Origin: an uncultured Gammaproteobacteria bacterium
Lineage (GTDB): Bacteria > Patescibacteriota > Microgenomatia > Levybacterales > UBA12049
Assembly: GCA_964553245.1 (NCBI GenBank)
Contig: CAZKJM010000001.1
Span: 209,806 to 273,805 of the forward strand
Direction: 5' to 3'
DNA length: 64,000 bases
Part shown: positions 41,387 through 50,893 of the stretch, piece after piece
Numbering within the stretch: the stretch's first letter is position 1
How the letters are laid out: the number at the start of each line of letters is the position of its first letter
The notes under the pieces: model-generated
Told to the model about the DNA's origin: nothing
What the model saw: only the letters and a program-made list of their open reading frames with translations
Database searches by the model: none
Translations under genes and position numbers: made by a program

Positions 41387-41457
41387 CGGGGAGTAGTTTA
41401 ACGGTAGAATGCGCGCATGGGGTGCGTGTGACCGGAGTTCAATTCTCCGCTCCCCGA
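41387..41457 (+). tRNA. tRNA-Pro (anticodon GGG), no encoded CCA
   Basis: 7-bp acceptor stem CGGGGAG/CTCCCCG; T-arm CGGAG-TTCAATT-CTCCG; anticodon loop AT-GGG-GT with G37; TATAAT at 41371-41376 just upstream. Confidence 0.7.
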
Positions 41458-41482
41458 CTAAAAGATAGCTACGGAATTAAGC

Positions 41483-46751: not shown

Positions 46752-47525
46752 TTACGTTAATACTAAAGGATCGTTTTTTGTTATGGCAATTGTTTTCTCA
46801 AAAGTTGCCGAAAGACTCTTGTCTTTTGTTACTATTGTCCAGTTATCGTTTTTTGATCTTAAAACTTCATGTCTACCCATATTATAAATAACCTCAATTG
46901 CCAAAGTCATTCCATTCTTTAAGATAGGCGAAGAATCTATTTTTCCATATAAAAATCCTGGGATTTCCGGTTCCTCATGTAATTTTCTACCTACTCCGTG
47001 ACCAACAAGGTTTCTTACAACAGAATATCCTGCGCCCTCAACAATATTTTGAATTGTTTTTGAAATATGCCCAATCCTATTTCCCTCTTTTGAGACTTTG
47101 ATAGCTTCTCTTAGAGCTCTTTTTCCTGTATCTAAGAATTTTTGAATTTCGCTTCTGTTAGTAATTAATTGTTGTTTGTTGTTTGTTGAAACACAAAGCG
47201 TTTCCGACATATCTGTAAAAAAACCTTTATAAAAAACTCCACAATCTATGCCAACCACGTCGTTTTCTTTAAAAACGTAATCTGTTGGTAAACCATGAAC
47301 AACCTGATCGTTTGTAGAGACACATAATGTATAATTATATGAATCAACTTTTTTAAAACCGGGTTCTCCACCTTTTTTAACGATAAGCGCTTCTGCTAAT
47401 TTATCTAATTCTTTTTCTGAAACTCCCGGCTTTAAGTAATCAATTAATTCACTCATTGTTTCAGCGAGAATTTTTCCACCGAAGCGCATTATTTCTATTT
47501 CTTGATCGTTTTTAATCTTAATCAT
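46752..47525 (-). CDS. map: methionine aminopeptidase type I
   Basis: 257 aa; metal-ligand D/D/H/E/E pattern (GIDCGV..., HGVGR...). Confidence 0.9.
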   Translation of the reverse strand: MIKIKNDQEIEIMRFGGKILAETMSELIDYLKPGVSEKELDKLAEALIVKKGGEPGFKKVDSYNYTLCVSTNDQVVHGLPTDYVFKENDVVGIDCGVFYKGFFTDMSETLCVSTNNKQQLITNRSEIQKFLDTGKRALREAIKVSKEGNRIGHISKTIQNIVEGAGYSVVRNLVGHGVGRKLHEEPEIPGFLYGKIDSSPILKNGMTLAIEVIYNMGRHEVLRSKNDNWTIVTKDKSLSATFEKTIAITKNDPLVLT

Positions 47526-47531
47526 GAAGAA

Positions 47532-48668
47532 TTAAATATGAATACCTAAACGTGTCAATAATATATCTATTTTTTTATGAAGATCGTCTAAGTCATTACT
47601 GTTATTTTCAATTAAGTAATCTGCAATACTTATTGGTCCTCCCTTGTTTAATTTTTCCAATTCCGTAATATCTCTTGTTCTTGAGTCATTCAAAGAAACA
47701 GGTCTTACTATTCTTCTACTTAACCTTTCGTAACGCTTTTGAGGCTCAGCATAAATATGAACCAAGATTAAATTGGGAAATTTCTTTTTAAGAAATGTAT
47801 ATTCTTCCCATGAATATAAACCATCAATAACTATAATGCTGTTGTTTTTTATTAGCTTATTAAGTTCCGGCTCCGCCTTAATTGCATAAGCTCCCATTCC
47901 TAATTCCTGTCTTATTTTTTCCCTAAACATTCTTTCGTTATCAGGATTTATAGAAAGACCCATTTCTTTTAAGCCCTTGTCCGTAATTTCGCCAAATCTT
48001 ACAAACGGTATGCCTTTTTCTTCGAGATAACCTCTTGCCTCACTTTTTCCTGCTCCAGGCATACCAACTAAAGCCAATATGTAATTATCATATTCTCCTT
48101 CCTTAATTACCGAATCTTTTGGCATTATCCTCTTCAATTCTTCCAACATTTCTTTGTTGATGGTACCTATAGAAGTTTCTCCGTTAACCTCTGTTAATAT
48201 TCCTTTTTCTTTATAATGATCAATTACAGGCTGGGTTGTTTTGTGAAATAGCTGAATCCTTTTTCTGATTGCTTTTAAAGTATCGTCTTCTCTTCCATCA
48301 TTTCCATTCCTGTAAGATAATCTCCATAAAGCATCTTTATCCGATACTCTAAGATAAAAAACTTTATCTATATTTTCCTTAAGCTCTTTTGCCTGTTTTA
48401 ACGTTCTTGGAAAACCATCCAGTATGTAACCATTTTTATATTCCGGTCTTGATAAATATTCACTGACTATTTTAAGAGTTTTTTCATCCGGTACAAGATA
48501 TCCTGTATTAATTATTTCTTTTATATATCTTCCAATATTTGTTTTTTCTCTTGCTAAGATACGAAATATGTGCCCCGTGGATAAATAAGGAATTCCTAAT
48601 TTTTTAGAAAGTAAATTACCTTGAGTTGATTTACCAGCTCCTTGAATTCCTATTAAAATTATTTTCAT
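47532..48668 (-). CDS. adk: adenylate kinase (short-LID form) fused to a second P-loop nucleotide/nucleoside kinase-like domain
   Basis: N-terminal [10 protein letters not shown]...DGFPRT (Adk). Second Walker [11 protein letters not shown] at about residue 200, then [19 protein letters not shown], resembling archaeal-type cytidylate/dNMP kinase folds. Confidence 0.75.
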
Positions 48669-49951
48669 TTCTTAAATCCTTCGTAGTTTCGCATTACAAG
48701 TTGCGCCTCTATGGTTTTAATTGTTTCTAAAACTACTGAAACAACGATTAATACTCCTGTTCCTCCAAGTGCGATATTTTGAACATTTGTAAAGTATTTT
48801 GCGATTGTTGGAAAAATCGCAATAAAACCAAGAAACAAAGCGCCCGCTAAGGTAATTCTGGTCAAAATATAATTTAAGTAGCCTGCTGTTGGACTACCCG
48901 GTCTTATCCCGGGAATAAATCCTCCGTATTTCTGAATTTCTTCAGCAATTTTTTTAGGATTAAATACAACAGCTGTGTAAAAATAAGTAAATCCTACGAC
49001 TAAAATAAAATAGATTAAATTATAAAATATTCCATCGGGATTAAACCAGACCGTAATAAAAGTTGCCAGTCCGCTTAAAAAAGCATTCTTAGAAACAGAC
49101 AAATAATTACCTATTAATGAAGGGAGTAAAACCAAGGAAACAGCAAAAATAATTGGTATTACACCTGCTTGATTTAACCTTAAAGGAAGATGTGTTGATT
49201 GACCACCATACATTTTGTTACCTCTTACTCTCTTTGCATAATAAACAGTAATTTGTCTTGTTGCCTCGTTTATTGTAACTATAGATGCTATAACAAAAAT
49301 TCCCATTGCTATAAAAACAAATAAATTGGTAATGTTTTGAGCATTTGCGGTAGACATTGTTTGCCCAAACATAACAGGAACCCGGCTAACAATTCCTGCA
49401 AAAATTAAAAGAGAAATTCCATTACCGACACCTTTTTCCGAAATTAATTCACCAAGCCAAACCAAAAGCATTGTTCCCGCAGTCATTGTTAAAACAAAAG
49501 CTACTACGCTAACCGGAGCTACTGTGGTAATGATTCCCTGATTTTTCAAAAGCGCATACATTCCTATTGCCTGAAGAACTGCAAGTGGAACAGAAAGGAT
49601 TCTCGTGTATTGATTAATTTTCTGCCGTCCAGCTTCTCCCTCTTTTTGTAATTGTTCAATTTTGGGAAATACAATACCTAATAATTGGAAAATTATTGAG
49701 GCGTTAATATATGGATTAAGACCAAGTGCCATTATGGAAAAGTTAGCCAGTGTTCCACCCGAAAAAATATCCAGCAATCCTAAAAATTGATTTTGGGAAA
49801 AAAGTACTTTAAGTTGCCCAAGATTTACTCCCGAAACCGGGATATGGGCAAATAATCTGAAGACTACAAAAATAATAGCTGTAAACAGAAGCTTTCTCTT
49901 AACTTCCGGTGACTTAATACTGTTTTTAAAAACAGCTAAGATATTATTCAT
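48665..49951 (-). CDS. secY: preprotein translocase SecY
   Basis: 428 aa, 10 TM helices, conserved SecY motifs. Confidence 0.95.
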
Positions 49952-49953
49952 TA

Positions 49954-50391
49954 TTAAACTTCTATTGTTCCACCTGCTTTTTCAATTTTTTCTTTTGCCG
50001 ATTTAGAAACCGGTAACTTTATTTTTAGCGATACTTTTAAATCTCCATTTGCCAGAACTTTTACCCCTCTTTTTAAAGCATCTTTCTGGACAATTTTATT
50101 ATCTATCAATGCTTTTAAATCAACAATGCTATCTTTTTTAAGACTATTTAACTTGTCGAGATTTACAGGAACTGCTTTATTCCTAAATGAAACGTTTTTT
50201 CCTTTTCCCCTTAAAAAAGGCATTCTTTTAATAAGAGGCAAAGCTCCTCCTTCAAATCTGATTGGAATATCATACCTTGCTTTTTGACCTTTTGTTCCTC
50301 TTCCGGATGTCTTAACGCGACCAGAACCATGTCCCTGTCCAAGTCTTTTTTGTGTTCTTTTTGTAGTTTTTATTAATTTATTTAGTTTCAT
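49954..50391 (-). CDS. rplO: 50S ribosomal protein L15
   Basis: L15 core [18 protein letters not shown]. Confidence 0.95.
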
Positions 50392-50893
50392 TTTTACCTT
50401 TCTTAATTAATTTTTCGCGATTGAATCTTTGAGAAAGCCTACTAAGAGCTTCCATGGTTGCATAAACATTACTTGCTTGATTTTTTGTTCCTAAAACTTT
50501 AGATGAAATATTTTCTATTCCCGCTAAAGAAACTACACTTCTTACTGCTCCTCCTGCGATTACTCCACTTCCCTGAGGGGCTGGTTTTAACAATAACTTT
50601 GCTGCTCCAAGTTTTATATAAACCTCAAACGGAATTGTCCCATTTATAATTGGTATTTCTACTGCATGTTTTTTTGCTATCGAAACTCCTTTTTTAATAG
50701 CTGCGGAAACATCCGGAGCTTTACCAAGCCCTACTCCTACTTTTCCATTTTTATTACCAACTACGATTAAAACCGAAAATCCAATTTTATTTCCACCCTT
50801 AGTTTTTTTAGAAACCCTGTTAACCTGAACTATTTCTTCTTTAAATTCATCTCTTGCCTGATTTTTTTCCATAGTTTCCAAACTTTTATCCAT
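50378..50893 (-). CDS. rpsE: 30S ribosomal protein S5 (directly followed by L15; no L30 gene)
   Basis: S5 dsRBD and C-terminal domain; 14-nt overlap with rplO. Confidence 0.95.
   Translation of the reverse strand: MDKSLETMEKNQARDEFKEEIVQVNRVSKKTKGGNKIGFSVLIVVGNKNGKVGVGLGKAPDVSAAIKKGVSIAKKHAVEIPIINGTIPFEVYIKLGAAKLLLKPAPQGSGVIAGGAVRSVVSLAGIENISSKVLGTKNQASNVYATMEALSRLSQRFNREKLIKKGKNETK

Follow-up and report, generated by a model that had tools for sequence, protein, structure and literature searches.

We describe here a gene coding for two joined P-loop domains, found in a 64,000-nucleotide stretch of contig CAZKJM010000001.1 (assembly GCA_964553245.1; the whole stretch is hereafter called the window, and its G+C content is 32.9 %). 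In the list of open reading frames (ORFs) with translations, the interval 47532-48668 is a single uninterrupted ORF of 378 amino acids on the minus strand, with its stop codon at 47532-47534; the plus-strand translation of the same interval contains stops throughout. The product joins an adenylate kinase (Adk) of the short-lid type (residues 1-181, 48126-48668) to a second domain, called X (residues 196-378, 47535-48083), through a short linker (residues 182-195, 48084-48125). All features of this locus are on the minus strand. An earlier note on this DNA had reported a single ORF inside the secY/ribosomal-protein operon and quoted two motifs from its second half; this was confirmed, with the strand corrected to minus, and the motifs were located at residues 202-209 (GMPGAGKS) and 301-319 ([19 protein letters not shown]).

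The gene lies in a ribosomal-protein operon with the order S8-L6-L18-S5-L15-secY-adk-map-infA-S13-S11-S4-rpoA. The stop codon of the upstream gene, secY (48665-49951), overlaps the adk start by 4 nucleotides (nt), and the downstream gene is map (methionine aminopeptidase, 46752-47525), an order that is conserved among the loci of relatives.

The N-terminal half proved to be the complete short-lid Adk that had been claimed for it. PF00406 (ADK) matches residues 5-156 (E 1.2e-37, 129.8 bits for a gathering cut-off of 26.8) and is covered over positions 1-150 of its 151. The short-Adk model NF001381 spans residues 1-179 with 174.3 bits, just under its curated equivalog cut-off of 187, and TIGR01351 scores 156 bits, just under its cut-off of 168; values slightly below threshold are typical of divergent sequences from bacteria of the candidate phyla radiation (CPR). 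The first Walker A motif, GIQGAGKST (residues 7-15, 48624-48650), is invariant in the 68 fused homologues of alignment A2, and so are R36, D84-R88 (DGFPR), Q92, R116, R126, D128 and R137 (68/68 in each case). With the P-loop lysine K13, the AMP-binding R36 and R88, Q92 and the Arg and Asp residues of the lid all present, the Adk half is very probably active and would interconvert AMP plus ATP and two ADP.

Family and fold of the second domain

The only Pfam matches of X are with the generic families PF13238 (AAA_18) and PF13207, the former over residues 199-320 (E 8.8e-22 for the whole protein, in two stretches, and 2.1e-12 for X alone). A single-sequence phmmer comparison related X to SSO1041 (E 1.2e-13), and a profile built from 47 X domains (alignment A1) matched PDB entries 3lw7 and 3h0k end to end (E 8e-26), positions 4-180 of the 183 of X being aligned with residues 3-177 of the 179 of SSO1041. 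This protein was the sole strong sequence relative of X with a solved structure, and adenylate kinases matched the profile at the P-loop only. The AlphaFold2 (AF2) model of X alone reached a predicted local distance difference test (pLDDT) score of 96.1. Foldseek searches with this model placed 3lw7 and 3h0k on top (template modelling (TM) score 0.78-0.88), AMP-bound 3lw7 being the best match (TM 0.82-0.88, root-mean-square deviation of 2.4 Å, 28 % identity); shikimate, adenylate, gluconate and UMP-CMP kinases and CoaE followed at TM 0.55-0.70, and AK5 was also among the fold matches. X belongs end to end to the UPF0200/SSO1041 family of P-loop kinase domains, a family that also occurs in archaea.

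The presence of a second P-loop domain of nucleotide-kinase fold after Adk, as proposed in the earlier note, is thus borne out by PF13238, by the second Walker A motif and by the AF2 model. The note had also likened this domain to cytidylate/dNMP kinases or dephospho-CoA kinases: the distant resemblance to dNMP and dephospho-CoA kinases stands, but membership of the Cmk or CoaE families does not, X being a UPF0200 protein instead. Among the Cmk models tested (bacterial PF02224 and TIGR00017, archaeal TIGR02173), the matches of PF02224 and TIGR02173 fell on the P-loop of Adk (residues 7-39 and 1-41), and X alone matched neither. When X was compared with the Adk half by hhalign, only the region from the P-loop to strand 2 could be aligned, with Adk R36 facing a variable D/N position of X, so X is not a recent duplicate of Adk.

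Records from the Joint Genome Institute (JGI), and some from NCBI, label relatives of X as dephospho-CoA kinase (DPCK). Besides these annotations, this identity has in its favour that CoaE is the nearest characterised family in the profile search, although far behind SSO1041 (8dv0 at E 3.8e-6, 2if2 at 1e-4), and that PF01121 is weakly matched by 10 of the 47 X domains. Window X, however, has no PF01121 match at E ≤ 0.01 and does not reach the threshold of TIGR00152 either. The DxD that follows strand 2 in CoaE, an acidic acceptor motif, is replaced in X by the nearly invariant F225-G226 (F32-G33 in X numbering), and genes of the CoA pathway were seen in none of the X contexts inspected. A 2019 mBio paper reported that TK1334 and TK2192, two P-loop homologues of DPCK from arCOG01045, are devoid of DPCK activity and of unknown function, the archaeal DPCK being the unrelated TK1697. 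Both proteins, and arCOG01045 with them, are likely to belong to the same family as X, judging from their size and from the TK1334 primer, which encodes a UPF0200-type N-terminus (MIVIVTGM). Since a protein with such an N-terminus lacked the activity, the DPCK label is probably wrong, and we consider it very unlikely that X is a DPCK.

Spread and origin of the fusion

The fusion is real, a statement that we make with near certainty. A protein identical to that of the window (P0121) is already public, on a contig of 561,761 bp, and fused relatives of 378 residues, with 75 % identity and a homologous linker, occur on several independent contigs and in different samples (P0122, P0123, P0391-P0393, L008). 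At the junction, the DNA of the window and that of the related metagenome-assembled genome (MAG) L008 align gap-free and in frame despite many substitutions. The full-length search further returned at least 120 fused clusters among the matches listed, 371-391 residues long and with identity down to 47 %, from Gottesman-, Roizman- and Woesebacteria and other Microgenomates/Patescibacteria. A sequencing or assembly artefact was considered, since in most close relatives the stop codon of adk overlaps the start codon of X, so that a 1-nt error could fuse the two genes; with the same architecture and linker on independent contigs, a junction without indels and over 100 other fused clusters, a frameshift or an error of assembly is excluded for practical purposes, its residual probability being minute. 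Such fusion proteins are known already from databases, under generic or wrong names: NCBI and JGI entries call them 'nucleoside monophosphate kinase', 'adenylate kinase', 'AAA family ATPase' or 'hypothetical'.

A covalently linked kinase pair at this locus had been called unusual in the earlier note, and this view has to be reversed: within Microgenomates-type CPR bacteria, fused or adjacent adk and X are the rule. Among 80 related loci from GTDB representative genomes, the order secY-adk-X-map was found in 72, mostly as two genes with 4-nt overlaps, and adk and X were fused in two. The nearest relatives of X alone are stand-alone Levybacteria proteins of 183-202 residues, whose genes directly follow adk. 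In a neighbor-joining tree, fused and split forms interleave, which implies at least four transitions, and the window protein is nested among split Levybacteria genes. An independent fusion (P0383) has the reverse order, X then a long-lid Adk.

The linker ([14 protein letters not shown]) begins with an in-frame methionine, M182 (48123-48125), and its length is within the range of the N-terminal leaders of split X proteins. Given these two features and the nesting among split genes, the loss of a stop codon is the simplest reading: the adk stop would have disappeared and the two reading frames would have been joined in this sub-lineage, M182 probably being the position at which the X gene once started. 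Translation from an internal start at M182 is unsupported. A GAGGA motif lies just 2 nt upstream of the M182 ATG (48123-48135), loose motifs of the Shine-Dalgarno type precede only about 22 of the 73 genes of the window, and the fused protein P0122 has an isoleucine at this position (KKIIPKG). The AF2 model of the full-length protein (pLDDT 89.6, predicted TM score (pTM) 0.57) shows both domains well folded and has lower confidence in the linker, and the two domains would fold independently on this flexible connection of about 14 residues.

Several further observations were made on these loci. In three Levybacteria-type loci, an extra divergent Adk-like ORF of 194-223 residues, under all curated cut-offs, stands between adk and X (L009:3155-3769, L027:3017-3688, L028:2032-2616), and another locus holds two X paralogues in tandem (L015:3416-4555). 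Many MAG records with a CPR-type secY-adk-X-map locus (L008-L011, L013, L023 and others, from co-assemblies or binchicken) are titled 'uncultured Gammaproteobacteria bacterium', a title that looks like a placeholder or a wrong taxonomy. In the window itself, L15 (49954-50391) is overlapped by S5 (50378-50893), with no L30 gene between them, and S5-L15 without L30 is a usual CPR trait. Together with the G+C content and the contig of about 562 kb, this agrees with a Levybacteria-like CPR genome. A tRNA-Pro(GGG) at 41387-41458 is the sole tRNA of the 64 kb, and besides it no Rfam family reached its gathering score in the window.

Putative function of X and of the pair

X retains the main elements of a P-loop kinase site, with the lysine of Walker A, an Asp resembling that of Walker B, a lid rich in Arg and, on a helix of the type that binds nucleoside monophosphates (NMPs), two further Arg residues. 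In the second Walker A motif (48042-48065), G202, G205, G207 and K208 are invariant. The DGLYSWEEY motif (residues 282-290, 47799-47825) is the counterpart of the Adk DGFPR and contains the conserved D282-G283 and the invariant S286 and E289 (alignment A1). A lid-like segment (47661-47735) carries R312, R315, R319, R322, R332, D333 and E336, all invariant in alignments A1 and A2. R253, also invariant, and the conserved R249 lie on the helix of the NMP-binding region, and K341 (47646-47648) provides a positive charge that is paired by covariation with Y285 (47814-47816).

The site after strand 2 bears on the nature of the acceptor. P-loop kinases that phosphorylate hydroxyl groups, such as dNK, CoaE, shikimate kinase and Pnk, place their general base (Asp or Glu) there. 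In X no acidic residue is invariant at this site, where D, N and T vary, so an acceptor that already carries a phosphate fits X. On this basis X would be a second phosphotransferase, i.e. a (deoxy)nucleoside monophosphate ((d)NMP) kinase.

The gene contexts of relatives were then taken into account. When 1.84 billion representative sequences were searched with the X profile, 5,906 relatives came up, of which 289 had E ≤ 1e-30. Scanning the long relatives for domains revealed X joined to a ComEB-type dCMP deaminase, to a long-lid Adk or to a PRK08356-type paralogue, and X preceded by HD_3 (a 5'-deoxynucleotidase-type HD domain) or by HAD_2; these fusion proteins match the X profile with E values from 1e-45 to 1e-54. 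Other fusions remain unexplained (P0277, P0367, P0377, P0340 and P0271, with the architectures X-HEAT, GNAT-X and DUF1858-X). In five loci of Chloroflexota/Dehalococcoidales type, an X gene whose product is 47-50 % identical to window X is followed by a gene for a ComEB-type dCMP deaminase; the two genes overlap and are translationally coupled in four loci (L074:2985-4006, L075:3989-5034, L082:3986-5016, L084:3989-5054) and are adjacent, with a gap of 135 nt, in the fifth (L086:3992-5164). A Nealsonbacteria locus (PCRM01000022.1, L080:2375-6509) encodes a triple fusion of 519 residues, X-ComEB-type dCMP deaminase-dUTPase; glyA, thyX and a tmk-like gene come next, and the compact cluster makes up a complete dUMP-to-dTDP module.

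Phage and defence proteins gave matches as well. Window X matches the PADLOC dCTPase model PDLC02373 (3.4e-10) and, weakly and partially, the phage dNMP kinases of phrog_139 (1.1e-5, residues 83-178), which the X domain of the Nealsonbacteria fusion matches over residues 1-200 (9e-11); several viral dNMP kinases were also among the fold matches of X in BFVD. According to Tal et al., anti-phage dCTP deaminases need their kinase-like domain to deplete dCTP, the role of this domain being left undefined, and in the AvcD papers searched nothing on the P-loop domain was found.

Taken together, these contexts tie X to the metabolism of mononucleotides, above all of deoxynucleotides with cytosine, uracil or thymine. 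That X acts on nucleotides or nucleosides seems to us reasonably probable. Its being specifically a (d)NMP kinase is plausible, at somewhat less than an even chance, and the (d)NMP-kinase reading is ranked first for the CPR protein because the nearer relatives are those that carry nucleotide-metabolism contexts. For the whole protein, a two-headed nucleotide kinase handling AMP and a second (d)NMP is a prediction that we hold to be evenly balanced. The second acceptor would probably be a pyrimidine or deoxy nucleotide of the dCMP, CMP or dUMP type, and the earlier idea of an AMP plus CMP/dNMP kinase is the hypothesis best supported by the dCMP deaminase, Dut, thyX and tmk contexts. Both heads would be produced stoichiometrically from the secY-adk-map operon and would phosphorylate or re-equilibrate salvaged (d)NMPs.

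The same contexts can be read one step earlier in salvage, with X as a (deoxy)nucleoside 5'-OH kinase (for deoxycytidine, deoxyuridine or adenosine) feeding the next enzyme, i.e. Adk in CPR bacteria and dCMP deaminase in Chloroflexota. By Rosetta-stone logic, X-dCMP deaminase, X-deaminase-Dut and Adk-X would be consecutive two-step salvage lines, and HD_3-X and HAD_2-X would make substrate cycles of a kinase and a nucleotidase; deoxycytidine and deoxynucleoside kinases are among the viral fold matches, and the AMP of 3lw7 could be a product. The variable site after strand 2 speaks against this alternative, as does Pfam dNK, which is touched by only one of the 47 X domains, and R249, R253 and the Arg285/Lys341 charge fit a phosphate-bearing acceptor better. 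We regard a nucleoside kinase as unlikely and return to the (d)NMP-kinase reading.

Several observations weigh against it. X falls under the threshold of every curated NMP-kinase model. No demonstrated activity of any UPF0200 member was found in the literature, the sole assay found, that of TK1334 and TK2192 for DPCK, being negative, and no characterisation of UPF0200/SSO1041 after the 2019 mBio paper was found there either. Fixed packing of the two domains or channelling between them receives no support from the full-length model, with its pTM of 0.57. In addition, Y285 of window X replaces an Arg that most family members have, SSO1041 included. Positions 285 and 341 covary nearly perfectly, with Y+K in 291, R+M/L/I in 126 and R+K in one of 508 aligned X rows, identical rows being counted once and shared ancestry not being allowed for. 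The site thus bears either Arg285 with a hydrophobic residue at 341 or Tyr/Gln285 with Lys341, and both charges together only once; since one positive charge is always kept, the site looks functional, and K341 appears to compensate for Y285.

The archaeal contexts weigh in the same direction and hint that some UPF0200 proteins at least may have a role linked to RNA. In four of four archaeal loci (L088:4001-4997, L090:4001-5003, L091:4001-5001, L089:4001-6426), the UPF0200 gene forms a pair with a PF01877/UPF0201 gene, the two overlapping in three of these loci, and the neighbours of this conserved module include genes for a CCA-adding enzyme, LigT (2',3'-cyclic phosphodiesterase family), an RNase Z-like protein, a THUMP methyltransferase, an MJ1316 RNA-end domain and PRPP synthase. 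The HD-kinase and HAD-kinase architectures, for their part, recall polynucleotide kinase-phosphatases (PNKP and HD-Pnk). A 2008 structural paper mentions UPF0201 domains fused to 'putative CoaE' proteins. X could accordingly be read as an RNA-directed kinase or ATPase, either a 5'-OH polynucleotide kinase or a tRNA-/rRNA-linked factor, its place in the operon reflecting translation or RNA repair; weak matches to KTI12 (8 of the 47 X domains), to the phage polynucleotide kinase phrog_505 and to viral Pnk folds point the same way.

Against such a role, the constant partner of X in CPR bacteria is adk and not a ribosomal protein, and most bacteria in any case have adk in this operon. Outside the CPR, the partners of the closest relatives are dCMP deaminase, Dut, thyX and tmk rather than RNA enzymes, and X is a compact, NMP-kinase-like domain of 183 residues without RNA-binding extension. 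The 2008 structural paper on UPF0201 argues against RNA binding. The ribosome-assembly kinase Fap7/AK6 was rejected as an identity for X, since 4cvn matches positions 3-33 only, i.e. the P-loop, at E 0.16. An RNA-directed function is in our view improbable, to much the same degree as a nucleoside kinase or slightly more so.

A sub-case of the (d)NMP-kinase reading is that X substitutes for Gmk, or acts as a broad-specificity NMP kinase in place of a canonical one that these reduced genomes and archaea would lack. T4-type dNMP kinases accept dGMP, X matches them and the phage 'guanylate kinase' phrog_1815 weakly, and together with Adk such an enzyme would handle both purine NMPs. The 2019 mBio paper describes arCOG01045 as present in nearly all archaea and suspected to be essential, and a 2026 preprint proposes that a cultivated Patescibacterium, from which Gmk is reported to be absent, relies on Adk-/Cmk-type phosphotransferases. 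The contexts, by contrast, suggest deoxynucleotides with cytosine, uracil or thymine rather than with guanine, which leaves a Gmk substitute a slim prospect. In the window, which is about 11 % of the contig, no other NMP kinase was seen, the other P-loop ORFs looking like TsaE, FtsE, RecA and EF-Tu. A motif scan for cmk, gmk, tmk, pyrH, ndk and coaE in the loci of relatives, which covers the flanks of these loci only, gave nothing useful, and the KEGG Orthology presence/absence supplementary tables of Jaffe et al. 2020 have no NMP-kinase entries.

Stated more broadly, X may represent an orphan UPF0200/arCOG01045 activity, that of a broad or guanylate/cytidylate-type (d)NMP kinase replacing the canonical enzymes in both CPR bacteria and archaea. 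We rate this as doubtful, if a little less so than the alternatives above. If true, Adk-X would be a 'general NMP kinase' with two heads, central to a lifestyle based on host-derived nucleotides, and an assay of X would assign a function to an orphan family that nearly all archaea possess.

Reduced CPR genomes usually salvage nucleotides, as the organism of the window presumably does, and, to our knowledge, CPR bacteria cannot make them de novo, so that phosphotransferases recharging salvaged nucleotides are central to their lifestyle; the 2026 preprint makes this case for Adk and Cmk. The coupling of adk and X across an entire group of CPR bacteria, up to their welding into one gene, is strong guilt-by-association evidence for UPF0200/arCOG01045. 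The contexts (Adk in both orders, dCMP deaminase, Dut, thyX, tmk, HD/HAD domains and defence dCTP deaminases) provide a short list of assays, and thousands of probable mis-annotations, as 'dephospho-CoA kinase' or 'AAA family ATPase', are flagged by the analysis.

Comparison with known systems

Residues 1-181 share with bacterial short-lid Adk (PF00406, NF001381) both the catalytic residues and the secY-adk-map locus, and the window protein differs from it by its second, C-terminal kinase domain. Two NMP-kinase-fold domains on one polypeptide have a precedent in the eukaryotic AK5, AK8 and AK9, which consist of duplicated Adk-type domains; unlike in these duplications, the second domain here comes from a separate orphan family.

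Compared with CoaE (PF01121), X has a similar C-terminal region (R..Q/AD-x-I-x-N) but lacks the DxD acceptor motif and stays under the family threshold. The putative family members TK1334 and TK2192 of Thermococcus kodakarensis are small proteins (20-22 kDa) long annotated as dephospho-CoA kinase. Phage and giant-virus dNMP kinases (T4 gp1 type, phrog_139), which act on a phosphate-bearing acceptor, match X in both sequence and fold; they are stand-alone proteins, not orthologous to X, and the similarity is weak and partial.

The anti-phage dCTP deaminase (NF041025, PADLOC dCTPase) has an N-terminal kinase-like domain homologous to X, and the order of domains is the same in the X relatives that carry a ComEB-type deaminase. 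The window protein itself was rejected as a member of this defence family, its homology being confined to the kinase-like part: unlike the defence enzyme, it has no zinc deaminase domain and no defence-island context, and it scores far under the cut-off.

The closest counterpart of X is SSO1041 of Saccharolobus solfataricus (3LW7 with AMP, 3H0K), described as 'adenylate kinase-related, AdkA-like' and homologous to X end to end. Both proteins display the motifs TGMPGSGKS, DG-x-RS..E, the R..R lid, RD..E and ADY-I-N, SSO1041 having an Arg at the site of Tyr285 of the window protein. SSO1041 is a stand-alone protein whose gene is paired with a UPF0201/PF01877 gene beside tRNA-processing genes, whereas the partner of X is adk.

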